A stretch of DNA of 60,587 nt from an uncultured Anaerolineae bacterium (GCA_964625745.1 CAZVCJ010000005.1:6514-67100), one strand, 5' to 3'. Positions 20,991 to 38,833 are shown, numbered from the stretch's first letter. Numbers and translations: made by a program. Notes: generated by a model not told the origin, from the letters alone.

Positions 20991-23558
20991 ATGATAATCT
21001 CAGCAAAGCGTTTCTTCCAAAGAAGACTGGTGGGTATAGTCGCCACGGCGCTGTTCGTCGGCAGCTTTCTACTCTACGTCAGCACCATGGCCCCATCAGT
21101 GGCACCGGGGGACTCGGCGGAGTTCCAGTTCGTGCCCTACATCCTGGGCATCGCCCACCCGCCGGGCTACGCTCTCTACATTCTGCTGGGGAAGCTCTTC
21201 ACTCTCCTTCCCCTGGGCAGCGTCGCCTATCGGATGAACCTCTTCACCGCCCTCTGCGGCGCGCTGGCCGTTTCCCTCACTTACCTGATCATACTGCAAT
21301 TATCAGAAAAAGTAACCATAGGCCCACCCTCCCCTAGCCCCTCCCTCAGAGGGAGGGGGACTCAGATTCCTCCCCCTGGTAGAGCCTGCCCTGAGCTTGC
21401 CGAAGGGGGGAGGTTGGGAGAGGGTGGATTATGCAATGGAAATTCCACCCTCCCCCAGCCCCTCCCTCCAAGGGAGGGGAGCACCATACTCCTCCCCCTC
21501 GTAGGGGGAGCCTGTCCTGAGCGAGGTCGAAGGGGTTGGGAGAGGGTGGATTCTACAATCGCCGCCCAGGTGCCGGCTATCCTGGGCGCGGCCACCTTCG
21601 CCGTCAGCCCCAATCTCTGGCAACACTCCACCTTCACCAACGCCCACACCCTGACCGCGACTTTGGGCGCGCTGGCCCTGTTCCTCCTGCTCGCCTGGGA
21701 CAAGAGCGGCAAAGACAGGTATCTGTACGCTTTCGCCCTGGTTTGTGGCCTCAGCCTGACTCACCACCCTCTCATGTTGGTCAGCTTCCCCGCCTTCGCC
21801 GTCTTCATCCTGCTGGTCAAACCCCAACTGCTGATCAGCCCCAGGAAGCTGGCAACCTTCGGCCTTCTGTTCCTGCTCGGCCTCTCGGTTTACGTGTACT
21901 ATCCCATCAGGAGCGCGCCCCCTTTCGGCCCGCAGGATACGAACACACTGGACGGCTTCCTGCGACTGGTGACAGCGCAGGGGTTGCGCATGAATCTCTT
22001 CTCCTTCGGCTGGCGGGAGCAGCCCCAGCGCGTGCTGGCCCTCAAGACGCTCCTGGGCCTGCAATACAACGCCCCCGCACTCCTGCTGGGCATCGCGGGG
22101 GCCATCTGGCTGGCTATCAAAAGACGCAGGGCCTTTGTGCTTCTGGCACTCTTTTTCACCCTGAACTCGGCTTTCATCATGAACACCATCCAGGACGTGA
22201 TGAAATACCTGCACCTGCCCTTCATGGCCTACGCCGTCTGGATCGGCTGTGGGGCGATGGCCCTTTTCGATCTCCTGGAGAGAGGGCGGGCCAAGCCCCG
22301 CACGAAGGCCCTCTGCGCCATCGCCCTGACCCTCCTCTTGCTCGTATCCCCCTTCAAAATGGGACTGCTCAACCTCTCGCGCGTGGACCTGAGCGATTAC
22401 CGCTTCGCCGACGACTTCGTCCAGGCCACCTTCGACTACTTCCAGGATGAGGGGGGCGTCCTCCTCTGCGATTGGGACCACATCACCCCCCTCTGGTATT
22501 ATGACTTCGTCGAGGGGCGGAAGCCCAGGGTCGAGGCTAAGTTCGTGCCCGCTGGCACGGCCAATCCCTGGCTGGAGTTGGTGGAGGCCAACCTGGGCCA
22601 GGGCCCCGTCTATCTCTCAGGCTACCGGCGTTCGGTGGCGGATAGATACCGCCTCCTGCCAGTGGGGCCTTTCTACCAGGTGCTGCCCGAACCCCTATTA
22701 GAGCCCCCGTCCATGCAGCATCCCCTGGATGCGACGGTCGAGGACGTGCCAACAAGTTGGCCTATCGCCATCCTGGGCTACGACCTGGACCGTGAGGTGG
22801 CGCGAGTGGGCGAGACCCTCCACCTGACCCTCTACCTGCAAGCCCTGCAGAAGCTAGACGAGTACTACATGCCTTATGTCCACTTAGCCCACTGGTACCG
22901 CTTCACCACCGACAGCCGCTTCCTGACCCTCTTCTGGGAACCGGGCCAGGTGGTGGCCGAGCGCTACGACGTCACCATCCCCTTCGGCACCGAGCCTGGC
23001 CAGTATCCCCTGGAACTGGGGATCACCTCCCTCTCGCGAGGGCAGGACCTGCCTCTCTCCAGCGGGGGCACCACCATCGAGTTGGCGACGGTGCGCATCG
23101 AGGCGAGCCAGATCCAGCCGCCCTCAGACATCACAAAAAAAGCCCTGGCCAACTTCGACAGCAAGATTCTGCTGGAGAAAGCCAGGACCAACCCAACACT
23201 TGCGCACCCAGGTCAAGCTCTTTCTATCACCCTCTATTGGCGGGTGCTGCAGCCCATGGATGAGTGCTACACTGTCTTCGTCCACGTCATAGATCCATCG
23301 AACCGTATCTGGGGGCAGAAAGACTTCACCTCGCTGGGCGGCAGCTATCCGAACTTCCTGTGGATTCCCAAATGGCTGGAGGGACAGGTCATTGACGACC
23401 GCTACACCGTCATCCTCGACCCCCAGACGCCGCCGGGGGAGTACTGGGTCGAGGTGGGGATGTACGGCATCGCCACCACCAGGCGCGTGCCCATCTTTGA
23501 CGGAGAGCTGAACCTGACCGGCGATAGAGTCATCCTGGGCAGCATTCGCGTGGAGTGA
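20991..23558 (+). CDS. DUF2723-family polytopic membrane protein (putative glycosyltransferase)
   Basis: N-terminal APSVAPGDSAEFQFVPYILGIAHPPGYALYILLGKLF is the DUF2723 signature, followed by many TM helices and a large C-terminal soluble part. Confidence 0.75.
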   Translation: MIISAKRFFQRRLVGIVATALFVGSFLLYVSTMAPSVAPGDSAEFQFVPYILGIAHPPGYALYILLGKLFTLLPLGSVAYRMNLFTALCGALAVSLTYLIILQLSEKVTIGPPSPSPSLRGRGTQIPPPGRACPELAEGGRLGEGGLCNGNSTLPQPLPPREGSTILLPLVGGACPERGRRGWERVDSTIAAQVPAILGAATFAVSPNLWQHSTFTNAHTLTATLGALALFLLLAWDKSGKDRYLYAFALVCGLSLTHHPLMLVSFPAFAVFILLVKPQLLISPRKLATFGLLFLLGLSVYVYYPIRSAPPFGPQDTNTLDGFLRLVTAQGLRMNLFSFGWREQPQRVLALKTLLGLQYNAPALLLGIAGAIWLAIKRRRAFVLLALFFTLNSAFIMNTIQDVMKYLHLPFMAYAVWIGCGAMALFDLLERGRAKPRTKALCAIALTLLLLVSPFKMGLLNLSRVDLSDYRFADDFVQATFDYFQDEGGVLLCDWDHITPLWYYDFVEGRKPRVEAKFVPAGTANPWLELVEANLGQGPVYLSGYRRSVADRYRLLPVGPFYQVLPEPLLEPPSMQHPLDATVEDVPTSWPIAILGYDLDREVARVGETLHLTLYLQALQKLDEYYMPYVHLAHWYRFTTDSRFLTLFWEPGQVVAERYDVTIPFGTEPGQYPLELGITSLSRGQDLPLSSGGTTIELATVRIEASQIQPPSDITKKALANFDSKILLEKARTNPTLAHPGQALSITLYWRVLQPMDECYTVFVHVIDPSNRIWGQKDFTSLGGSYPNFLWIPKWLEGQVIDDRYTVILDPQTPPGEYWVEVGMYGIATTRRVPIFDGELNLTGDRVILGSIRVE
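21324..21549. repeat. two tandem ~105-bp palindromic elements inside the DUF2723 CDS
   Basis: Copies at 21324-21427 and 21445-21549 (period 121 bp). Each begins CCACCCTCCCC and ends GGGAGAGGGTGG. The ORF stays open although the two copies are read in different frames. Confidence 0.8.
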
Positions 23559-25577: not shown

Positions 25578-28127
25578 ATGATCCCGCTCAAACTTCAATT
25601 ACGCAATTTCATGTGTTACCGCGAGCTCGATTCTCTGGATTTCTCGGGCATCCACCTGGCTTGCCTGGCCGGGGACAACGGCCACGGCAAGTCGGCCCTG
25701 CTGGATGCGATGACCTGGGCGCTATGGGGCAAGGCCCGCGCCAAACACGACGACGAGCTGATCCACCTGGGCCAGACGGAGATGGAGGTGGAGTTTGAGT
25801 TCGCCCTCGGCGAGAACCGCTACCGGGTCATCCGCAAACGGGACAGCCATGGGCGGGGGCAAAGCTCCCTGGAGCTACAGGTGCGCGACGACCACCTCTT
25901 TCGCCCCCTCACCGAGCCCACCATACGCCAGACCCAGGCCCGCATCAACAGGCTCCTGCGCATGGACTACGAGACCTTCATCAACTCGGCCTTCCTCCTG
26001 CAGGGACGCGCCGACGAGTTCACCACCAAGACCCCTGCCGAACGCAAGCGCGTCCTCGGCGAAATCCTGGGCCTCTCCCTCTACGATCAGTACGAAGAGC
26101 GAGCCAAGGAACGAGCTAAGGCCAGGGAAATAGAAGCCGAGCAAATCACAGCCCAGATCCGAGAGATGGAGCGGGAGCTGGAACGAAAGCCAGAATATGA
26201 GAGGGAGTTAAAACAGGCCCAGACTGACGTTGAGAGCTTGAACGCCACCTTGAGAGGGGCCGAGGAGGAGCTTCGCAAGCTGCGAGAGGAGTGGAAGGAA
26301 CTGGATCTTAAGCGAGTCCAGATCGAGGAGCTCTCGGCTCGGCTGGCCCAGGGAGAGCGAGAGCTGGCCGAAATCGGAGAGCAAATGGCGGCCTGCCAGG
26401 AACGCCTGGATGAGTACGAGGCGATCATACGTGACAAGGAGCCCATCGAGCGGGGCTTCGCCGCCCTGACCGCGGCCCGTCAATCCCACGAGGCGCTGAA
26501 CGAGAAGCTGGCAGAACTGGTGAAGCTGAACGAGCGCAAGGGCCAGTTGGAGGCAGCCATCGCCGAAGCCAGGCACGCCCTGAGCCTGGAGCAGCGCCTC
26601 TGTTCGGAAAAGGTGAGAGAGCTTTCGGCCCTGGCCCAAGAGCTGGAGTCACTGGGTACAAAGCTGCCCAGGGTCCGTGCCGAGCTGGAGCACCTGGTCC
26701 AGCAGGAGAGCGAACGGGAGGCCAGGCAGCAGGAGATAGGAGAGCTATCCAACGAGAAAGCCAGCCTCAAGACGCGAAACGAGCAGTTGAAGAGCGAAAT
26801 GGATTCCCTCGAGGAGAAAAACAAGCTTCTACAGGTTGCCGAAGCACAATGCCCTCTGTGCGGCCAGGGGCTTTCGGAAGAGGACAGAGTACGGCTCGTG
26901 GAGCAATTCTCCTCCGAGATGGCAGAGAGCGATGCCCTCTACCAGGCCAATCAAGCCCAAATCAAGGACCTGGCCGCCCGGAGCCAGACCCTGGTGCGAG
27001 AGATCGAGGCCATGGGGCAGGAGCTTGCGACCAAGGGGGCTTTGCAAAAGCAGGAGGCGACACTGGAGAAAAGCCTGGCCGAGGCAAAAGGAGCAGCCGA
27101 GGAGCTAGTCAAACGGCAGAAAAAACTGACCGAGTTGGACGAGCGCCTGACCAGCGGAAAATACGCCGAGGCTGAACAGGCCGAATTAGCGGGGCTTTTG
27201 GTCCAAATCGGGGAACTGGGCTACGATCCTGAGGCCCATCAGGAGGTGCGGCGAGACCTCGAAGTCCTCGGACGCTTCGAGGAAGACAAAGCCAGGCTGA
27301 AGGCCGCTCTGGCCCGCGTTGACGAAGAGCGAGCTAACCTGGAACGGCTACGCCATAATAAGGCCCGCTGGCAAGAGACCCTGGCCACTGACCTGGCCAA
27401 AAAAGAAGCTCTGTCTCAGGAATTGACCCGTTTGCCCGAGCTAGTCAGTCGGCTAGAGGGAAAGAGCAGGGAGGTGGACGGGCTGCGGACTAAGGAAGCC
27501 CGCGCTCGCCAGGTCCTGGGGGCGGCCAGGCAGAAGCTGGACTACTGCGAGTACCTGATCAGGGAGCGAGAGAAGAAGCTCAAGGAAAGACGCCGGGTGG
27601 CCGAGGAGAAGGCCATCTACGACGAGCTGAGGCTGGCCTTCGGCAAGAAGGGCCTGCAGGCCATGATCATCGAAAGCGCCATCCCTGAGATCGAGGACGA
27701 GGCCAACAGGCTTCTGGCGCGGATGACCGACGGACGCATGGACATGCGCTTCGAGACCCAACGCGAGACCCTCAAAGGCGACACCGTCGAGACGCTGGCC
27801 ATCAACATCTCCGACGAGCTGGGCACCCGCAGCTACGAGCTCTACAGCGGAGGGGAGAGCTTCCGCGTCAACTTCGCCATCCGCATCGCCCTGTCCAAGC
27901 TACTGGCCCGCCGCGCCGGGGCCAGGCTGCAAACCCTGGTCATTGACGAGGGCTTCGGCACCCAGGACACCCAGGGACGGGAGCGACTGGTGGAAGCCAT
28001 CAACTCCATTCGGGATGATTTCGAGAAGATCCTGGTCGTCACCCACATCGAGGAGCTGAAGGACGCCTTCCCCGTGCGCATTGACGTTTTCAAAACCCCC
28101 CAGGGCTCGCAGGTGGCGATCAACTGA
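25578..28127 (+). CDS. sbcC: SbcC/Rad50-family ATPase
   Basis: Walker A GDNGHGKSALLDA, long coiled coil with CPLCGQ zinc hook, signature LYSGGESFRV, Walker B LVIDEGFG. ATG 25578 after GGAGG. Confidence 0.88.
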   Translation: MIPLKLQLRNFMCYRELDSLDFSGIHLACLAGDNGHGKSALLDAMTWALWGKARAKHDDELIHLGQTEMEVEFEFALGENRYRVIRKRDSHGRGQSSLELQVRDDHLFRPLTEPTIRQTQARINRLLRMDYETFINSAFLLQGRADEFTTKTPAERKRVLGEILGLSLYDQYEERAKERAKAREIEAEQITAQIREMERELERKPEYERELKQAQTDVESLNATLRGAEEELRKLREEWKELDLKRVQIEELSARLAQGERELAEIGEQMAACQERLDEYEAIIRDKEPIERGFAALTAARQSHEALNEKLAELVKLNERKGQLEAAIAEARHALSLEQRLCSEKVRELSALAQELESLGTKLPRVRAELEHLVQQESEREARQQEIGELSNEKASLKTRNEQLKSEMDSLEEKNKLLQVAEAQCPLCGQGLSEEDRVRLVEQFSSEMAESDALYQANQAQIKDLAARSQTLVREIEAMGQELATKGALQKQEATLEKSLAEAKGAAEELVKRQKKLTELDERLTSGKYAEAEQAELAGLLVQIGELGYDPEAHQEVRRDLEVLGRFEEDKARLKAALARVDEERANLERLRHNKARWQETLATDLAKKEALSQELTRLPELVSRLEGKSREVDGLRTKEARARQVLGAARQKLDYCEYLIREREKKLKERRRVAEEKAIYDELRLAFGKKGLQAMIIESAIPEIEDEANRLLARMTDGRMDMRFETQRETLKGDTVETLAINISDELGTRSYELYSGGESFRVNFAIRIALSKLLARRAGARLQTLVIDEGFGTQDTQGRERLVEAINSIRDDFEKILVVTHIEELKDAFPVRIDVFKTPQGSQVAIN

Positions 28128-28132
28128 TTATC

Positions 28133-28161
28133 TTGACAGAGATTCGATTTCACGGTATACT
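28133..28161 (+). promoter_or_regulatory. sigma70-like promoter TTGACA-N17-TATACT
   Basis: Begins 6 nt after the sbcC stop and points into the toxin-antitoxin cassette. Confidence 0.5.
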
Positions 28162-28209
28162 AAACTATGCGAGTTTTCTGGTAAACGTGCACGTAAGCAG
28201 GAGGCAACG

Positions 28210-28467
28210 ATGAGTGATATCAAATTGTCAACTGTCAAAACCTTTTATGACCAACAGGGTGTCCCTCGCGAAGTACTGTTGAGCTATGACATCTACCGCG
28301 AAATGATGAGAGCGATCCGCGAGTTGGCGGTCGAGACTAAGCAAGCATATTTTTGGACGGAACAGTGGCAGGCAATGGAACGGGCTGCAGACGAGGCCGC
28401 TGCCCAGGGTCAATTCCGCACCTTTGACTCGATGGATGAGATGCTTGACTTCCTGGATGCCCAATGA
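28210..28467 (+). CDS. putative antitoxin (85 aa)
   Basis: AGGAGG RBS; acidic C-terminus; overlaps the next ORF by ATGA (28464). Confidence 0.5.
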   Translation: MSDIKLSTVKTFYDQQGVPREVLLSYDIYREMMRAIRELAVETKQAYFWTEQWQAMERAADEAAAQGQFRTFDSMDEMLDFLDAQ

Positions 28468-28676
28468 TTCGCTACCGCCCCCTGAAAACATTCTGGGAGG
28501 CTTACGCTGAACTCCCCGCCCATATCAAGACAAAAGTCCGACAGACGTTCAAGCTCTTCCAACAAGGCGCCGAACATCCGCCCTTTCACCCCTCGCTTCG
28601 CATCCGCAAGATGCGAGGATACCCCAACATCACCCCGCTGTACATTGCCAGCCTTCCTCTTCCCTGTGCGCATTGA
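28464..28676 (+). pseudogene. truncated RelE/ParE-family toxin fused to a displaced sbcC 3' fragment
   Basis: FKLFQQGAEHPPFHPSLRIRKMRGYPNI matches the N-half of ParE/RelE-like toxins. The frame then runs into the sbcC-tail copy and stops, and the C-terminal half is absent. Confidence 0.5.
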
Positions 28677-28718
28677 CGTGTTCAAAACGCCCCAGGGCTT
28701 GCAGGTAGCGATTAGCTG
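28659..28718 (+). repeat. second copy of the sbcC 3' end
   Basis: About 85% identical to 28066-28127. It encodes FPVRIDVFKTPQGLQVAIS* versus the authentic FPVRIDVFKTPQGSQVAIN*. Confidence 0.8.
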
Positions 28719-29980: not shown

Positions 29981-31489
29981 CTAATCTCCAATACCCAATA
30001 TCCGATTCAACGCTTTCCGTACCGCCTCCCGATCATCCCACGGAACCTCCGTGATGCCAAAACACATGGACTGCTCATGGCCCTTGCCGGTGACGATCAC
30101 CAGGTCCCCGGCCCGGGCCATTTTTACGGCAAATTGGATAGCCTCTCCGCGGTCGCCGACGCGCCAGTAGTCCTCCCCTTCCCTGCACCCCGCGCTCTCG
30201 CAACCGACCGCGATTTGAGCCATGATGGTGTCCAGGTCCTCGGTGCGCGGATCCTCAGCCGTGATGACCACGCGGTCGGCCAGCTTCCCGGCTATCTCCC
30301 CCATCATCGGCCGCTTGGCCATGTCCCGCAGCCCTGCGCAGCCGAAAACGACGATGACCCGGCCATCGGTCAAGCAGCGCGCCGTCTCCAGCACCCGTCG
30401 GAGAGCGTTGGGCGTGTGAGCGAAATCCACGATGGCGATGAAGTCCTGCCCCAGGACGATGCGCTCCATGCGCCCCGGCACCCCTCGCACGGCGACGACG
30501 CCCTCCTGCATAGCCTCGAAAGGAACCGACTGCGAAACACCGACAGCGATGGCCGCCAGGATGTTGTAGACATTGAAAGGGCCGGGGAGCTCTGTCCGCA
30601 CTGCGAACTCCCCATCAGGGGTTACGGCGGTGAAGGTCGTCGCTGTTGGCGTGTACACGATGTCCCGGGCCGTGGCATCTGCTGGCCACTCCAGACTGTA
30701 GGTTAGATGACGGTCGGCGGGGATTGGGCGCAGGTATTCAAAAGAGGAATCATCGGCGTTGAGGATGGAGGTTTTCGGGGTGTCGGGCTTGCGGAAAGAA
30801 CTGGACAGGTCGCGAAAGAGGCGGGCTTTGGCCTCCCGATAGTCCTCGAAGGTTTTGTGATAGTCCAGGTGCTCGTGGGTGATGTTGGTAGCCACTGCCA
30901 CGTCGAAATCGCAGGCCGTGACCCGATGCTGGGCCAGGCCGTGAGAGGTAGCCTCCAGGACAGCGTACTCTGTGCCGGCGGTCACCATCTGAGCCAGGTA
31001 TCGTTGCACCTGGAGCGCATCGGGGGTGGTGACGTGAAGACCTGTCGTGTAGTGCTCGTCGCCGATGAGGGCCTCCACGGTGCTGATCATCCCCGTCTTG
31101 TATCCCGCGGCGGCCAGGATGCTCCGGATGAGCTCGACGGTGGTGGTCTTGCCGTCGGTGCCGGTGACGCCGACGACGCGCAGCTTTCGAGCCGGGTGGT
31201 CGTGGAAGGCGGCAGCCAGGTGAGCGAGAGCCTGGCGGGAATCGGGGACGAGAACGTACGGAACAGAGATGCTCGTCTCCCGCTCACCGACGACGGCCAC
31301 CGCTCCCTGCCGGATCGCATCGGGGATGAAATCGTGGCCGTCGGCATCGAGGCCCTTGACGGCCACGAAGAGATCGCCGGCCTGCACTTGACGCGAGTCC
31401 TGAGCCAGCCCCTTGATTTCCACATCCACGCGACCGTGGACTTGCTTGTGAGATAGAGCGGTTAGCAAGTTAGAAAGCTTCATACCCAT
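29981..31489 (-). CDS. murE: UDP-N-acetylmuramoyl-L-alanyl-D-glutamate--2,6-diaminopimelate ligase
   Basis: VGVTGTDGKTTT P-loop; ITAEDPRTED (DNPR-like) motif. Start at 31489 or 31483; the track start 31666 is rejected as an upstream extension. Confidence 0.88.
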   Translation of the reverse strand: MGMKLSNLLTALSHKQVHGRVDVEIKGLAQDSRQVQAGDLFVAVKGLDADGHDFIPDAIRQGAVAVVGERETSISVPYVLVPDSRQALAHLAAAFHDHPARKLRVVGVTGTDGKTTTVELIRSILAAAGYKTGMISTVEALIGDEHYTTGLHVTTPDALQVQRYLAQMVTAGTEYAVLEATSHGLAQHRVTACDFDVAVATNITHEHLDYHKTFEDYREAKARLFRDLSSSFRKPDTPKTSILNADDSSFEYLRPIPADRHLTYSLEWPADATARDIVYTPTATTFTAVTPDGEFAVRTELPGPFNVYNILAAIAVGVSQSVPFEAMQEGVVAVRGVPGRMERIVLGQDFIAIVDFAHTPNALRRVLETARCLTDGRVIVVFGCAGLRDMAKRPMMGEIAGKLADRVVITAEDPRTEDLDTIMAQIAVGCESAGCREGEDYWRVGDRGEAIQFAVKMARAGDLVIVTGKGHEQSMCFGITEVPWDDREAVRKALNRILGIGD

Positions 31490-31579
31490 CGCCTCAGCGG
31501 TGACATTCTCTCGCTCGCGACGGATTATCAAATCCGTCGCCTGGATCTGACGCTTGTCCTGTCGGGGTTTCCTCCGGTC

Positions 31580-31608
31580 TTGACAGGTTGTGATTGTTCT
31601 GCTATAAT
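31580..31608 (+). promoter_or_regulatory. consensus promoter TTGACA-N17(TGC)-TATAAT pointing into the cassette array (Pc-like)
   Basis: TTGACA 31580-31585, 17-nt spacer ending TGC, TATAAT 31603-31608. Confidence 0.6.
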
Positions 31609-31704
31609 GCCTGGTAAGGTGACCATGGACATACGCCAAAAGAGTGCGCATGGAGTTATTATACAAGAGGATTTCCGTAAATGCAACCCTGCGGATTGTT
31701 TAGG

Positions 31705-31757
31705 CGGATTCCGTCTAAGATACCGAAATAGCGGGGGAAGACGGATTCCGTACAAGA
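31705..31757 (+). promoter_or_regulatory. attI-like region: two 16-nt direct repeats upstream of the first core site
   Basis: CGGATTCCGTCTAAGA (31705-31720) and CGGATTCCGTACAAGA (31742-31757), with GTTAGGC at 31762-31768. Confidence 0.4.
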
Positions 31758-31777
31758 AATAGTTAGGCGCTGGAACG

Positions 31778-32602
31778 GTGGGTGAGATGCGATTCGTTAT
31801 TGCGCTTGGCGAGACCGCTTCGAAGCTGCACCCGGAAGCACAACTCTACATCGATAACCACCTTGCATCATATGGCGGTTGGCTTAGGAACAATCTCAAG
31901 CTGCGAGGGGAGATTCTTCACGATCCTGACGAACCGACGTTGGTTCAACGACTGAACGCTATTTCCGAATCAGAAGTTGAGGTGGTGACGACGTTGCAGG
32001 GTCGGTATTCATTATCCATGATCGGAAAGGTCGTAAACCACCTTCGAGATCGCGGCATAAACGTAGTCGTGACCATCGAGCCCATCCCTGAACACATACG
32101 AGAACTTGCTGGCGCACCTCGAATCAAGTACCACCAAATGCTGGATGCTTCCACACCAGAGTCCCGGCAACTCCGAGTATTCCTCTGTCATACTGCGGCA
32201 GACAAACCGTCGGTGCGCAAACTATACCAAAATATTCGCAAGCTCGGCGCGGAAGTGTGGTTCGACGAAAAGAGTCTGCTCCCCGGGCAAGACTGGAATG
32301 CCGAGATACAGGGAGCCATCCGCAACAGCGACCTCGTGCTCGTCTGTCTTTCGACTCGAGCAGTCAATAGAGTCGGCTATCTACAGAAGGAGATTCGGTA
32401 CGCGTTGGATTACGCAGACGAACAACCGGAGGGTTCCGTCTATGTCGTTCCAGTTAAACTCGAAGAGTGCGATGTCCCCAGCCGCTTAACACGGTGGCAA
32501 TGGGTGAATCTGTGGGAGGACGGCGGATTCGATAGGCTCGCTCAGGCACTACATGCTCGCGCAAGCGACTTAAGACGACGCTCAACGAATGGAGGTGCCT
32601 AA
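31778..32602 (+). CDS. TIR-domain protein with unknown ~135-aa N-terminal domain
   Basis: RVFLCHTAADKPSVRKLYQNIRKLGAEVWFDEKSLLPGQDW..I..AIRNSDLVLVCLS....RVGYLQKEIRYAL is a bacterial TIR_2 pattern including the conserved Glu. Start GTG 31778 or ATG 31787. Confidence 0.8.
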   Translation: MGEMRFVIALGETASKLHPEAQLYIDNHLASYGGWLRNNLKLRGEILHDPDEPTLVQRLNAISESEVEVVTTLQGRYSLSMIGKVVNHLRDRGINVVVTIEPIPEHIRELAGAPRIKYHQMLDASTPESRQLRVFLCHTAADKPSVRKLYQNIRKLGAEVWFDEKSLLPGQDWNAEIQGAIRNSDLVLVCLSTRAVNRVGYLQKEIRYALDYADEQPEGSVYVVPVKLEECDVPSRLTRWQWVNLWEDGGFDRLAQALHARASDLRRRSTNGGA

Positions 32603-32656
32603 CAAGCAAAATCAGCCGACGCTCGTACCTCGCGCGGCTGATTTGCAGCGTTAGAT
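32597..32656 (+). repeat. attC-like site 1
   Basis: Inverse core GCCTAAC overlaps the TAA stop. A 12-bp stem GCAAA(A)TCAGCCG/CGGCTGATTTGC has one extrahelical A, with a 16-nt loop. Core GTTAGAT at 32650-32656; a second GTTAGAC abuts the next ATG. Confidence 0.6.
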
Positions 32657-32668
32657 TTACAGTTAGAC

Positions 32669-33259
32669 ATGAAAACATTTATTGGAATAGACCCCGGTGG
32701 CGTCAAAGCCTTTGGCTGGTGCGTTATGGATGCAGCCCTCCCGGCACTATCGGTCAGTCGAATAGTAACTGGCACATGTTCTGGCATTTCAGAAGCTATT
32801 CCAGAGATTGAGCGGATTTGTGAAACTCAACCAGTCGGGGCAGGAATAGACGCACCGCTATATTGGGCACGAGCTGGCGAAAGAATGGCGGATCAGAAAA
32901 TCCGCAAAGCTGTCGCAAAAGCTGGTGGTTCCTCTTCTACTGTTGGTCACGTCAATTCATTACGCGGTGCATGTCTTGTTCAAGGCGTGCTCTCAGCAGT
33001 TGGACTTGCCGAAAAATGGCCACAAATTGCAATTACGGAGTCCCATCCCAAGGCCTTACTTTCTGTATGGCCCGGAGCTGTAGAATTTGTCAGACAATTT
33101 GAATTTTCAACCGATCATGAGCGAGATGCCGCGATTGGGGCATATGCGGCTTTTGCGTTTTTATCGCAATGGCCTCAATGGGTTGATTGGGTAGAATTAG
33201 AAGAAAGCTGCTTCATACCGTCTGGAGGGAAAGTAGCCTATTGGTTTCCACGGGTTTGA
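32669..33259 (+). CDS. DUF429-like (RNase H-fold) predicted nuclease
   Basis: FIGIDPGGVKAFGW...GIDAPL...ITESHPKA...DHERDA pattern of DUF429. Confidence 0.6.
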   Translation: MKTFIGIDPGGVKAFGWCVMDAALPALSVSRIVTGTCSGISEAIPEIERICETQPVGAGIDAPLYWARAGERMADQKIRKAVAKAGGSSSTVGHVNSLRGACLVQGVLSAVGLAEKWPQIAITESHPKALLSVWPGAVEFVRQFEFSTDHERDAAIGAYAAFAFLSQWPQWVDWVELEESCFIPSGGKVAYWFPRV

Positions 33260-33260
33260 A

Positions 33261-33320
33261 ATCTAGCATTCGGGTGGTAGGGACGCTCGTTCCTCGCGCC
33301 CCACACCCGAGGCGTTATAC
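33261..33320 (+). repeat. attC-like site 2
   Basis: ATCTAGC, stem TCGGGTG(T)G, loop containing ACGCTCGTTCCTCGCG, core GTTATAC. Confidence 0.5.
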
Positions 33321-33332
33321 GAGAGGAGAATT

Positions 33333-33941
33333 ATGACTGAGTATGAGGAGTACAGCCTACTTATTAGATTTCTCGGATCTCTTGTAACTGTTTTGGCAGT
33401 AATTGTTGCCATATGGGGTGAACGGTTGCGCCAGTTGTGGACTAAACCAAAGCTCAAAATATCGCTTGCCGACCCTCAAGGGTCATTTACCACCAGAGCA
33501 GACAAAAAAAAGGCAAGATACTACAGTCTTGATGTCAGAAACGATCGACGTTCGTCTCCAGCAAAAAATGTCAGAGTGCTTCTAACAGAAATCATCAAAC
33601 AAGGCCCTGATGGCAACTGGAGACCTATCGTTTTTAGTGGACCCGTTCATGTAACCTGGAAATGGCCAAACATAACTCCAGCATATACAACAATTGGTCC
33701 TGATGAAATGGCGACTTTCGGTTTTGTCGTTGAAGATGCCAAATGGTTTGCTCTTCAGTTGTATTGGTGTCCTAACAATTTAGAACCAGCTTTTCCTCCA
33801 AACGAACCAATTAGACTGAAATTCAAAGCAGTATCTGATTCAGAAGAATCCAATACTCTTACTGTACAGGTAGCATGGGATGGTATGTGGAGTGAAGGTA
33901 GTAAAGAGATGCAACAACATCTTATCGTCAAGGAAATCTAA
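33333..33941 (+). CDS. hypothetical protein: one N-terminal TM helix plus ~165-aa beta-rich domain
   Basis: LLIRFLGSLVTVLAVIVAIWG helix; RBS GAGAGGAG; AT-rich; no recognised domain. Confidence 0.6.
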   Translation: MTEYEEYSLLIRFLGSLVTVLAVIVAIWGERLRQLWTKPKLKISLADPQGSFTTRADKKKARYYSLDVRNDRRSSPAKNVRVLLTEIIKQGPDGNWRPIVFSGPVHVTWKWPNITPAYTTIGPDEMATFGFVVEDAKWFALQLYWCPNNLEPAFPPNEPIRLKFKAVSDSEESNTLTVQVAWDGMWSEGSKEMQQHLIVKEI

Positions 33942-33948
33942 TAAAATC

Positions 33949-33999
33949 ATATAACCAGGCTAATGCAGCCGACGCAAGAAGCCGCGCGGCCGGTTAGCG
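33949..33999 (+). repeat. attC-like site 3 (shorter, more degenerate)
   Basis: ATATAAC ... GCTAATGCAGCCG acgcaagaagccgcg CGGCCGGTTAGC; core GTTAGCG. Confidence 0.4.
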
Positions 34000-34075
34000 A
34001 CGTCAGGGCGGCTGGACATTCCTCACCCTCTCAGGCCCAATTCTGACCACGCCGAAAAGGTATCCAAATACAAAA

Positions 34076-34105
34076 GCGGGAGGCGCTTTAGACCTCCCGC
34101 TTTTT
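34076..34105. terminator. bidirectional intrinsic terminator
   Basis: GCGGGAGGcgctttagaCCTCCCGC with a T-run after it on the plus strand and an A-run before it. Confidence 0.6.
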
Positions 34106-34283
34106 CTGTGAACTGATCAGTCCCCAAATCCAACCCCAGTCCTCGACAGTTGTCTTGCCCCTCAAGAAACCACAATGATGCCCCACAAAGAAGAAACCTC
34201 AAGGAAAGACTCCTTGACGTCTTAAACAAAATCCAGTTTCCACTCTGCTCTCGCCGGATCGCCAAAGGGAAGACTACCGAACC

Positions 34284-36362
34284 CTAGAACAAATGGAAAG
34301 CGGCGATGATGGGGGCGAACAGGGAGGATACCAGAGACATCACAGTAATCAGGGTGTTGAGGGAAGGGCCAGCCGTATCTTTGAACGGGTCACCGACGGT
34401 GTCGCCTACGACGCTGGCCTTGTGGGCATCGGAGCCGGGGCCGCCGAACTCCCCCGACTCAATGAATTTCTTGGCGTTGTCCCACAGACCCCCTGCATTG
34501 GACATCAACAGGGCGAAGATAACCCCGGTGAAGATGCTCCCCCCCAGGAATCCCCCCAGGGCCTCAGGGCCAAGGATGATGCCAACCAGGATGGGGAGAA
34601 CGATAGCCAGGAAGGCCGGTATCACCAGGGACGACAGCGCGCCCTGGGCAGCCAGACCCACACAGGTCGCATAGTCGGGAGGCTCGGTGCCGGCCAGGAT
34701 GCCGGGGCGCTCGCGGAATTGCCGGCGAATCTCCTCGATCATATCGAAGGCATTGTGCGTAACGGCTAACATGGTAAGAGCGCTGAACAGCGGCGGCGTT
34801 ACCGCGCCCAACAGGACGCCGGCGATGACCACAGGCTCCCGCAGGCTGATGACCAGTTCCACCCCCCTGGCCCCCACGACCTCCGCGTAGGCGGCAAACA
34901 GCGCCAGGACAGTGAGGGCAGCAGCGCTGATGGCGAAACCTTTGGTGATGGCCTTGGCCGTATTACCAGCCGCATCGAGCACGTCAGTGGTGTCAATGAC
35001 TTCCTGGGACATCCCAGCCATCTCGGCGATGCCCCGCGCGTTGTCCACGATGGGCCCGTAAGCATCGGAGGAAACGATCATGCCGCTGACGGACAACATC
35101 CCCACCGCGCTAATGCCGACCCCGTAGATGCCGCTGATGCCGGATAATTCCGCCAGGTAGTAGGAAAGCAGCGTCGCCGCGACGATGCCAATGATCGAGG
35201 GAACGATGCTGACCAGCCCATAGCTGTAGCCGGTGATGATGTTGATGGCCGCGCCAGAACCTGAGACGCGGGCCGTCTCCATCACCGGGTGGAAATCAGA
35301 CGAAGTGTAGTAATCGGAGGTGAAGCCGATGACGACGCCAGTAACCAGCCCGGCCAGCGTAGCCCACAACACGCCGAGGCTGTAGCCGCCCAACAGAATG
35401 GTGGCAGCAGACAGCACGGCAAAGATGGCGCAGGTGATCATCGTTCCGCTATTGAGAGCCCTGCCTGGATTGCCGCTCTTACCCACGCGCACAAACCGGA
35501 TACCGATGAGCGAAGCAAATATGCCCAGCGTGCACAGAATCAAGGGAAACAAAACGTACCTGGTTTGCAAATCGCCGGCAAAGAGTGAGGCCCCCAAAAG
35601 CATGGCAGCCACGGTACTGGCCACGTAGCTATCGAAGATATCTGCCCCCATGCCAGCCACGTCGCCGACGTTGTCGCCAACGTTATCGGCGACTACGGCC
35701 GGGTTGCGGGGGTCATCTTCGGGGATGCCGATCTCGACCTTGCCCACCAGGTCGGCCGCGATGTCGGCCGTTTTGGTGTAGATCCCACCCCCCGCTTTGG
35801 CCAGCAAGGCCAGTGACGACGCGCCAAAGCTGAAGCCGAGGATGATCTCCGGGTCGCCAGTGACGAGATAAATCGTGCTCATACCGATGATAGCCAGGCC
35901 CACCATAGCCAGACCCATCACCGAACCGGCGTAGAAGGCCACTTGAAAAGCACGATTGATGCTCTCATTGGCCGCTGCTGCACTCCGCACGTTGGCGGCC
36001 ACGGCGACACTCATACCCATATACCCGGCGATGGCAGAACATATCGCGCCAGCCACAAAAGCTAATGCCATCGTGATACCCCGTGACGGGTTGACGGCTG
36101 CCGCTTTTAGACCCAGATGCTCGATATCGAAGCTGAACACGATAGCAATGATGACACCAAGCCCGACCGCAACGAGGGTGAGTGCCAGGTAGAGATGGCG
36201 CAAGTAGGTTTTCGCTCCATCTCGAATCCAGGACGCGACTTCCTGAGCCCTTTCGGATCCAGCATCCTGCCGGTTGACCCAGAGATATAGCCAGATCGCT
36301 ACTCCGAGAGAAAGGATTCCTGCAAAGATAGCCACGAAAATCCAGAGTTCAGATCCTGCCAC
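34284..36362 (-). CDS. hppA: membrane-bound proton-translocating pyrophosphatase, paralog 1
   Basis: GGIYTKTADIAADLVGKVEIGIPEDDPRNPAVVADNVGDNVGDVAGMGADIF. The GNTAKAITKG motif (Lys/Thr) suggests the K+-independent type. Confidence 0.92.
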   Translation of the reverse strand: MAGSELWIFVAIFAGILSLGVAIWLYLWVNRQDAGSERAQEVASWIRDGAKTYLRHLYLALTLVAVGLGVIIAIVFSFDIEHLGLKAAAVNPSRGITMALAFVAGAICSAIAGYMGMSVAVAANVRSAAAANESINRAFQVAFYAGSVMGLAMVGLAIIGMSTIYLVTGDPEIILGFSFGASSLALLAKAGGGIYTKTADIAADLVGKVEIGIPEDDPRNPAVVADNVGDNVGDVAGMGADIFDSYVASTVAAMLLGASLFAGDLQTRYVLFPLILCTLGIFASLIGIRFVRVGKSGNPGRALNSGTMITCAIFAVLSAATILLGGYSLGVLWATLAGLVTGVVIGFTSDYYTSSDFHPVMETARVSGSGAAINIITGYSYGLVSIVPSIIGIVAATLLSYYLAELSGISGIYGVGISAVGMLSVSGMIVSSDAYGPIVDNARGIAEMAGMSQEVIDTTDVLDAAGNTAKAITKGFAISAAALTVLALFAAYAEVVGARGVELVISLREPVVIAGVLLGAVTPPLFSALTMLAVTHNAFDMIEEIRRQFRERPGILAGTEPPDYATCVGLAAQGALSSLVIPAFLAIVLPILVGIILGPEALGGFLGGSIFTGVIFALLMSNAGGLWDNAKKFIESGEFGGPGSDAHKASVVGDTVGDPFKDTAGPSLNTLITVMSLVSSLFAPIIAAFHLF

Positions 36363-38054: not shown

Positions 38055-38651
38055 TTAGTCCCCGTAATCCCACGCATCCCCAATCGGGCATTTGACCCAT
38101 CGCTCGCGGAGCCATTGCTGCCCATACGTATCGAAGTAGAGATGCACACTGGACCACGGCCAATCGTAAGGGCTTTCGACGTACCCGTGTTTCACCGCGT
38201 TATAGTGGAGATAGTTCAGCGCGTGATAGTAATGACGCTCATCACGGATATAGCGATCACGGAATTTGTACCACACCTTGCGCTGCCCAGTGAGGCCATC
38301 CTCAAGATTCCACGCTCTGGCAGTGGTCCCATGGAGATGCTGGAGTATAGCCGAGATCTGCTCCAAGGATTGAACGCCCGCCAGAAAGTGATAGTGATTA
38401 GTCAAGATAACCCAACCCCCGATCTCAGCCTGGATGTCGGCCAGTTCTGAAAGGAGCTGATCCTCAAACGCAGTTAACCGGGCAGGGGAAGCCATGATGT
38501 GCGCGTGTTCGTAGTTGGCAACAGTGATGCAGTACCACCCGGCCTCGCGATAGGGATGCGGCGGCGAGTGTAAGGGGTAGCCACACTGCCGACGTTCTTC
38601 GACGACAACAGCACGCTCCTCGGGTGTCATGTGGCGATACTCGTAAGGCAT
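38055..38651 (-). CDS. REP-associated tyrosine transposase (RAYT, IS200/Y1 HUH family)
   Basis: HUH motif NHYHFL and catalytic-Tyr helix YLHYNAVKHGYV; 198 aa. ATG 38651 after GAGGGAGAG. Confidence 0.8.
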   Translation of the reverse strand: MPYEYRHMTPEERAVVVEERRQCGYPLHSPPHPYREAGWYCITVANYEHAHIMASPARLTAFEDQLLSELADIQAEIGGWVILTNHYHFLAGVQSLEQISAILQHLHGTTARAWNLEDGLTGQRKVWYKFRDRYIRDERHYYHALNYLHYNAVKHGYVESPYDWPWSSVHLYFDTYGQQWLRERWVKCPIGDAWDYGD

Positions 38652-38654
38652 CTC

Positions 38655-38833
38655 TCCCTCCGAAGCGACTGAAGTCGCCACTACGAAAGCCGTAGTAGCC
38701 ACGTAGTAGCCACTTCAGTGGCTTAAGCGCGACTGAAGTCACTACTACGGCTACTGCCACTACAAAGGCCACAATAGCCACCGTAGTAGCCACTTCAGTG
38801 GCTTGAGAGCGACTGAAGTCGCTACTACGGTCA
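38655..38833. repeat. REP/BIME-like cluster right of the RAYT gene
   Basis: Alternating hairpins GCGACTgaAGTCGC + CTAC and GTAG(TA) + GCCACTtcAGTGGC, at least five units. Confidence 0.8.

Follow-up and report, generated by a model that had tools for sequence, protein, structure and literature searches.

A cassette array between murE and hppA of an uncultured Anaerolineae bacterium, very likely what is left of a sedentary chromosomal integron with a deleted integrase gene

Organization of the locus

The DNA stretch analyzed here (60,587 nucleotides from an uncultured Anaerolineae bacterium, GCA_964625745.1, CAZVCJ010000005.1:6514-67100; hereafter the window) carries three one-gene cassettes at 31.5–34.3 kb, flanked by murE and hppA. 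The region is very likely the cassette-bearing end of a sedentary chromosomal integron of this member of the Chloroflexota, from which the integrase gene (intI) was deleted. Its remaining parts are an outward-facing promoter, an attI-type docking site ending in GTTAGGC, three cassettes each consisting of an open reading frame (ORF) and a 60-nt attC site, and a conserved platform end with a terminator-like hairpin. A preliminary description of the window had proposed the architecture of an integron, or of a cluster of attC sites without integron-integrases (CALIN), complete except for the integrase. This proposal was supported by attC models, by variation located precisely at the cassette junctions, and by an intI gene at the same locus in a relative. 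Relatives were obtained by scanning species-representative genomes with MurE, which yielded ten Anaerolineae/Chloroflexota metagenome-assembled genomes with MurE 76–90% identical; loci outside the window are designated by L and a number. The features of the locus, in window coordinates, are as follows.

Up to about 31486, minus strand: murE, the real start of which is taken as near 31486
31487–31579: spacer between murE and the promoter, the apparent site of a former intI, filled in L025 by a 320-aa integrase
31580–31608, plus strand: predicted cassette promoter (Pc-like), TTGACA-N17-TATAAT with an extended −10 TG, 12/12 consensus positions
31609–31768, plus strand: attI-like leader with three direct repeats, ending in the crossover core GTTAGGC (31762–31768)
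31763–32650, plus strand: cassette 1, 888 bp, with ORF 31787–32602 (271 aa, N-terminal domain and TIR)
32597–32656, plus strand: attC site 1, 60 nt, R'' GCCTAAC and R' GTTAGAT
32651–33314, plus strand: cassette 2, 664 bp, with ORF 32669–33259 (196-aa DUF429 protein)
33261–33320, plus strand: attC site 2, 60 nt, R'' ATCTAGC and R' GTTATAC
33315–34002, plus strand: cassette 3, 688 bp, with ORF 33333–33941 (202 aa, N-terminal membrane helix and beta-sandwich)
33949–34008, plus strand: attC site 3 (degenerate), 60 nt, R'' ATATAAC and R' GTCAGGG
34009–34283: distal flank, 88–93% identical to L019, L020, and L023 from directly after the last core
34072–34104: terminator-like two-way hairpin (12-bp perfect inverted repeat, then a T-run), located where the array and hppA converge
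34284–36362, minus strand: hppA, convergent with the array

All three ORFs lie on one strand, the stop codon of each is succeeded by a 60-nt imperfect palindrome, and Pfam bore out the first two of the identities given to them earlier (TIR, DUF429-like, and membrane-anchored). A start of the TIR ORF at GTG 31778 was rejected; the corresponding product is not on record, and the protein is called elsewhere from ATG 31787 with 271 aa. The array had been described as richer in AT than the murE and hppA flanks, which agreed with our values: the GC content was 0.43–0.55 inside the array, over 2.8 kb, and 0.60–0.66 in the flanks, and it dropped stepwise from cassette 1 to cassette 3 (0.52, 0.50, and 0.44).

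The cores GTTAGGC (31762), GTTAGAT (32650), and GTTATAC (33314) are accompanied by the inverse cores GCCTAAC (32597), ATCTAGC (33261), and ATATAAC (33949). On recounting, each inverse core complemented the core of its own cassette at 7/7, 6/7, and 6/7 positions, respectively, vs. 5/7, 4/7, and 4/7 for the following core, exactly as reported before. Of the four cores listed in the preliminary description the first three stood, but the fourth is GTCAGGG at 34002–34008 and not GTTAGCG at 33993, which lies inside the L' arm; the last core was placed there because both the alignment to our attC model R1 (see below) and the homology breakpoint with relatives put it at this position. The unit lengths of 888 and 664 bp were likewise retained, but cassette 3 measures 688 bp instead of 679 bp, and an additional core suggested at 32662 (GTTAGAC) was incidental.

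Identification of attC sites

A search of the whole window at the Rfam gathering thresholds gave no match. Covariance models were built from class 1 integrons. An aadA1-type attC with the start of the 3' conserved segment was confirmed in more than 5000 plasmid records, and seven class 1 integron arrays from plasmid loci supplied 18 attC sites for training, all checked for canonical folding. Long training sites were trimmed in the variable loop to bring the whole set to about 60 nt before alignment. In a check of the alignment structure 75% of the cells were paired, a value reached by none of 500 shuffles, and slid controls were much lower. Model R1 was made from all 18 sites and model R2 from the ten that were left once the aadA1-like sites had been removed; the window was searched with filters off.

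R1 matched site 1 with 35.6 bits (E 7.6e-7) and site 2 with 22.1 bits (E 0.0024), each end to end over model positions 1–60. With R2, the scores were 27.3 bits (E 1.7e-4) for site 1 and 18 bits (E 0.039) for site 2, and the two sites stayed the top two matches of this model. The sole further R1 match below E = 1 in the 60 kb was the reverse strand of site 1, as expected of a near-palindrome. The preliminary description had tied its proposal to attC-model matches at three positions; our own models matched 32597–32656 and 33261–33320, but the third site failed (8.1 bits). Sites 1 and 2 are attC sites. A scanner combining regular expressions with folding returned 40 candidates in the window and was too unspecific to be used as evidence.

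Folding of sites 1 and 2 as DNA gave the attC architecture: the R boxes pair, the central spacer stays unpaired, the L stem carries extrahelical bases, and there is a variable loop. Site 1 folded at −16.9 kcal/mol on the plus strand and −18.0 kcal/mol on the minus strand (z about −4.4; none of 200 shuffles was as good). The fold proposed for this site earlier was therefore confirmed as exceeding chance, but within its supposed 16-nt loop there is one more stem, of 3 bp, which an extrahelical A separates from the rest. The context of this A is GCCG-A-CGC, as in a class 1 attC, and on the bottom strand it is a T, the conserved extrahelical base of attC. In attC biology the bottom strand is the one that recombines. 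The bulged T of the bottom strand sits in a GCG-T-CGG context, the same as in aadA-type sites; the bottom strand of site 2 folds with two bulged bases, and sites 2 and 3 fold better on this strand, via G·T pairs. The fold of site 3 was no better than shuffles. An inner motif, GCCGACGC-N7-10-GCGCGGC, is common to sites 1 and 3 and occurs twice in the window vs. zero expected occurrences; a check for dispersed copies of the palindrome motif found none elsewhere in the 60-kb window.

Site 1 shares with the class 1 attC of the aadA1/aadB type (the "59-base element") its length of 60 nt, the ends GCCTAAC/GTTAGAT, and the inner GCCG-A-CGC...GCG-CGGC, and the two are 41/60 identical without gaps. In contrast to the class 1 element, the outer L stem of site 1 is re-paired by other bases through compensatory changes, and the first extrahelical base is displaced, resulting in a shorter unpaired spacer.

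Promoter, leader, and junctions of the array

The perfect TTGACA-N17-TATAAT promoter reported to face the array at 31580–31608 was recovered in full, and it may act as a cassette promoter. Both hexamers are kept in L019, in the two copies of L020, and in L023; in the intI-bearing L025, TTGACA-N17-CATAAT and the start codon of intI stand back to back. Inspection by eye of the surroundings of the promoter for a LexA-type box gave nothing convincing.

The leader following the promoter contains direct repeats at 31702–31720 and 31739–31757, which are 84% identical over 19 nt and thus extend the two 16-nt repeats noticed previously; a third, weaker copy is located at 31665–31686, and the repeat period is 37 nt. 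These repeats may be integrase-binding sites. This non-coding leader is 93.5–95.5% identical to that of relatives vs. 85–90% for murE and hppA DNA. Its homology to every relative stops at ...AAGAAATA|GTT, after which at least nine different sequences follow (in the window, in L019, in both copies of L020, and in L110–L118). The repeat-bearing leader thus behaves, as far as sequence comparison can tell, as an attI site heading a variable array, because conservation ends at its GTT and variable cassettes come after it. An attC site ahead of cassette 1 (31713–31768) was considered and rejected in favor of attI; it scored 3.7–5.2 bits and has no L stem.

The leader also contains a 45-codon ORF (31625–31762, MDIRQKSAHGV...IPYKK), the TAG of which overlaps the G|TT of attI. 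L019 retains this ORF, L020b has lost three of its nucleotides without a change of frame, and the L020a copy contains a frameshift. Given this frameshift and substitutions without a coding signal, the ORF is probably non-coding. It recalls class 1 integrons, in which a short ORF in attI1 aids the translation of cassettes.

Variation among relatives coincided with the cassette boundaries. The murE and hppA flanks are syntenic in L019, L020, and L023, and none of the three cassette genes is present there; the cassette DNA of the window (31769–34001) had no match in any of the relatives. In L019, the promoter and the repeat-bearing leader are kept up to ...AAGAAATAGTT and are followed by unrelated DNA with three other ORFs, until homology returns at GCGGCTGGACATTCC, directly after the last core. 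Homology with relatives thus breaks exactly at the GTT of attI and returns exactly past the last core, with different genes between, which is the junction-precise variation at G|TT that the preliminary description had named as a check. A scan of metagenomes with a 31-nt leader pattern added nine further contigs with the same leader, which hold at least six additional first cassettes. Among these, the leader regions of L113/L116 and L114 are 86% identical, with no common cassette downstream of attI.

In some relatives the whole platform is duplicated in tandem (L020 5958–10000, the same record as L117; L023 1–2232; and L111). The order there is distal flank, cassettes, leader, an intI stump joined to a fragment of the hppA C-terminus, distal flank, a second and different set of cassettes, leader, intI stump, and murE, that is, two integrase-less arrays in a row. 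The hotspot in L026 (1083–10000) is rearranged far beyond simple cassette exchange: the gap between hppA and murE is about 8.9 kb and contains a duplicated 5' murE fragment, several distal-flank fragments, and a run of unrelated ORFs.

Homologues of the three cassettes were found separately in other arrays. The DUF429 cassette is 605/676 identical (89.5%) to that of the unrelated array L098, bounded by GCGTTAGAT and GAGGCGTT with only noise outside; in L098 the gene has an ATC_hydrolase cassette on one side and an unrelated 251-aa gene on the other, and attC matches flank it on both. A TIR homologue (83% identical) is part of an array with Mrr, GNAT, and PIN genes in L106, where homology begins at the GTT core and an attC match lies downstream of the gene. 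In L104, a RelB-like pair and then an attC site precede the membrane-protein homologue (71% identical), which begins with GTTATGC. Judged from these boundaries, each cassette is a mobile unit in its own right. The exact DUF429 protein was also present on 18 metagenome contigs, all with the gene order of the window, and these represent the same population.

Loss of the integrase and decay of attC sites

No tyrosine recombinase had been noted in the window earlier, and tblastn with IntI1 and with the IntI of L025 gave no match in the 60 kb. In L025, the interval from the promoter to murE encodes a 320-aa IntI, whose gene is read in the direction leading away from the array. The protein reached 484.6 bits with the NCBIfam model TIGR02249 ("integron integrase"; cut-off 265) and is 56% identical to IntI1 over residues 7–328 (tblastn). 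Beyond intI, L025 continues with the promoter, an attI ending in CAATA|GTTAGCC, and cassettes that have long attC sites of canonical form at their boundaries; one of these cassettes has an ORF pair resembling a VapBC-type toxin-antitoxin, as judged by eye from the ORFs. L022 begins inside the C-terminus of IntI, directly before murE. An intI adjoining attI, as in a complete integron, is thus present in L025 and absent from the window, where two model-passing attC sites and a degenerate third lie on one strand within 1.4 kb with no intI nearby, in line with the CALIN definition of at least two same-strand attC sites within 4 kb.

N-terminal stumps of intI remain in L018, L019, L020, and L023 and in metagenome contigs, with differing lengths and deletion junctions. 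In L019 the stump comprises 151 nt (about 52 intI codons), in place of which the window has 16 nt; 14 of the 15 nucleotides at window 31545–31559 agree, in a weak match, with the L025 sequence that lies immediately 3' of its intI stop codon. The entire intI ORF therefore appears to have been excised from the window, with deletion end points different from those in L019. From these comparisons, the integrase-less state is a secondary loss, because L025 has intI at the locus and other relatives keep stumps.

A GC-rich unit of 24 nt, CACTTCGACAAGCTCAGYGCAGGC, was observed inside the intI stumps of L020, L023, L114, and L118, sometimes in two or three variant copies. A diverged copy of this unit (3 mismatches) lies at window 21384–21407.

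Two of the three attC sites also show decay when compared with their counterparts. The R'' of site 2 is ATCTAGC in the window vs. the canonical ATCTAAC in the near-identical copy of L098 (AAC to AGC). At the position of the last core (34002–34008), L019 and both copies of L020 have GTTAGTG and L023 has GTTAGCA, with the conserved flank directly after; the GTC of site 3 in the window is a derived change (GTT to GTC) at an invariant position, as read from this comparison, because the relatives have GTT there.

Proteins encoded by the cassettes

The C-terminal half of the TIR protein matched Pfam TIR_2 (6e-27), and its TIR domain matched the solved NAD+ hydrolase AbTIR (6e-6). The protein appears to keep the expected catalytic Glu in ...LQKEIRY..., read against the TIR_2 consensus. 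Its PADLOC matches, all partial, were to the TIR associated with prokaryotic Argonaute (pAgo), to PDC-S66, and to ThsB (ThsB-model E 7e-6 and weaker), and the N-terminal 128 residues had no Pfam match. We regard it as a putative NADase with a putative sensor domain. Nothing like ThsA, the partner expected in Thoeris, was found among the three cassette proteins, and no complete known defense system was matched.

The second protein matched Pfam DUF429 (7e-5), with a weak PADLOC match to PDC-S44. Its AlphaFold model (predicted local distance difference test, pLDDT, 93) has an RNase H-like core; the best fold matches, all weak (E ≥ 0.04), were to Hsp70/ParM-type (ASKHA) ATPases, to RuvC-like poxvirus resolvases (template modeling score, TM-score, 0.39–0.53), and to Endonuclease V. 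Residues D8, D61, H126, and D153 are invariant across the DUF429 homologues, which adjoin DarTG, a PLD/SNF2-helicase and DUF1156 gene cluster, and a large DUF4011 helicase. Based on the modeled fold, the protein is a putative nuclease of the RNase H type. A DUF429 homologue 56% identical occurs in Xanthomonas cerealis (L102/L103) outside any detected attC array, next to a PLD/SNF2-helicase and DUF1156 cluster and DarT-Macro (DarTG), so that the family is also found in ordinary defense islands.

The third protein had no match in Pfam, NCBIfam, or PADLOC. Its model (pLDDT 94) consists of a helix at residues 3–37 followed by a beta-sandwich, for which only generic immunoglobulin-like beta-sandwich folds were matched, and sequence searches of solved structures with the DUF429 and membrane proteins gave no match. 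An anti-phage role of the cassettes is plausible, given the company that they keep and the precedent published for other integron cassettes.

Proposed history of the array and alternative explanations

In the proposed mechanism, an IntI like that of L025 would recombine the folded bottom strand of the attC of a circular cassette with attI, with the crossover between G and TT. In consequence, each cassette would start with TTRRRY and end with ...G, and the TIR cassette, which adjoins the promoter, would be the newest arrival. One message for all three genes would probably run from the promoter to the hairpin at 34072–34104.

Several points weigh against reading the locus as an integron remnant. 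The covariance models are home-made rather than IntegronFinder's curated model, and long variable loops were trimmed to 60 nt for them; in L019 and L025, attC sites with long loops either escape R1 or have their correct R'' matched to a GTT inside the site, and these long sites were read by eye. Site 3, though aligned end to end, scored only 8.1 bits by R1, corresponding to a window-wide E > 10. The direct repeats are only partly recognizable in the intI-bearing L025, which weakens a role in integrase binding, and the 15-nt scar match to L025 is marginal (E 0.037). The search for intI covered 60 kb of the genome, and an integrase elsewhere in it is possible.

The three genes might instead constitute a fixed anti-phage operon of a TIR protein, a nuclease, and a membrane effector, with the palindromes serving as ordinary terminators or attenuators. 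The common strand, tight spacing, and single upstream promoter are consistent with this, as are the PADLOC matches of the TIR protein (ThsB-like and pAgo-associated) and, weakly, of the DUF429 protein (PDC-S44). However, close homologues of each gene occur apart, with other neighbors and bounded by attC, while the trio occurs together only in near-identical copies of the window locus; the palindromes match attC models end to end, R boxes included, and the GC content differs among the three genes. We rejected the fixed operon because the cassette homologues sit in separate arrays, and we consider it very improbable. Less credible still is the view that the palindromes are repeats of the repetitive extragenic palindromic (REP) or miniature inverted-repeat transposable element (MITE) type in an island acquired by another mechanism. 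Their imperfect palindromy, uniform 60 nt, and common inner motif would fit such repeats, but the 60 kb hold no additional copies, the sites are strand-specific with canonical RYYYAAC...GTTRRRY ends, the unit boundaries fall at G|TT, and an integron integrase lies at the same locus in L025, so that the probability of this view is close to nil.

Within the interpretation as an integron remnant, the array is probably frozen unless an integrase comes from elsewhere, because the locus integrase is missing and two of the three attC sites changed at invariant positions. A platform that is not frozen is possible, although we hold it to be the less probable state: the leader with promoter and attI would act as a landing pad on which cassettes are exchanged either by an integrase in trans, from the genome or from incoming elements, or by homologous recombination, including swaps of whole arrays, for which the conserved leader and distal flank would provide the arms. 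The higher conservation of the leader (93.5–95.5%) than of murE and hppA DNA (85–90%) argues for this, as does the absence of a full intI from each of the nine leader-bearing metagenome contigs, the first cassettes of which are nonetheless diverse. Pointing the same way, L113/L116 and L114 share a single intI truncation junction (...ccctttcYtSgcgaatggagtagtgttt...) and have wholly different arrays, but this common junction could itself have spread by recombination. Mobilization of CALIN cassettes in trans was raised as a possibility by Cury et al. (2016, PMC4889954). Continued exchange is opposed by the mutations at invariant positions in two of the three attC sites of the window, by the same three-cassette order on 18 of the 18 contigs with the exact DUF429 protein, and by the failure to observe a second integrase. 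Should exchange continue, the platform of this clade might outlive its integrase under selection while the arrays still turn over; populations would then hold many alternative small arrays, some of which, including the window cassettes, may be undescribed single-gene anti-phage systems. This scenario remains tentative.

Two further observations concern other parts of the window. A 215-aa ORF (38055–38702, minus strand) without a Pfam match lies between response-regulator and histidine-kinase genes; it has no counterpart in L019 or L020, where both neighbors adjoin, and looks like a small genome-specific insertion. Between sbcC and a HhH-GPD glycosylase gene, at 28081–28700, two overlapping ORFs of 85 and 70 aa, called as genes on metagenome contigs, coincide with a GC dip (0.50–0.55); they had no Pfam match and might be toxin-antitoxin-like.

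Comparison with known integrons and significance

The locus resembles the sedentary chromosomal integrons of Vibrio cholerae (the superintegron) and Xanthomonas in its fixed lineage-wide position, mutually similar attC sites, strain-specific cassettes, and toxin-antitoxin cassettes in relatives (L025 and L104). It differs from them in its very short arrays (about 2–4 ORFs in those read), its Anaerolineae host, and the tandem duplication of the platform in some relatives. For Xanthomonas, intI decay inside one clade is also known.

Integrons have already been reported in Chloroflexi (Cury et al., 2016, PMC4889954). In that survey, CALINs were defined by at least two attC sites without intI, intI loss was one proposed origin, and a recognizable intI pseudogene was near only 15 of 279 CALINs. 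The window falls under this definition and shares with CALINs a cargo unrelated to antibiotic resistance and an apparent origin by intI loss; in contrast to them, it keeps attI and the promoter, and its intI loss can be reconstructed from relatives. Integron cassettes have been reported to encode anti-phage defense (Darracq et al., 2024, bioRxiv 10.1101/2024.07.02.601686). The cassettes described here are likewise compact, single-gene units with defense-type domains, and their homologues lie beside DarTG, the PLD/SNF2-helicase and DUF1156 cluster, Mrr, and HNH genes; "TIR" and "DUF429" are, however, absent from the main text of Darracq et al. (2024).

The current understanding of integrons is not overturned by this locus, which is a clear but ordinary example of a known element and extends the well-documented chromosomal integrons into uncultured Anaerolineae. 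With an intact integron, intI stumps of several lengths, and complete loss of the gene at one chromosomal site in one clade, it provides a clean natural example of how CALINs originate. The three short, delimited cassettes, whose homologues keep company with defense genes, are reasonable candidates for phage-defense screening.

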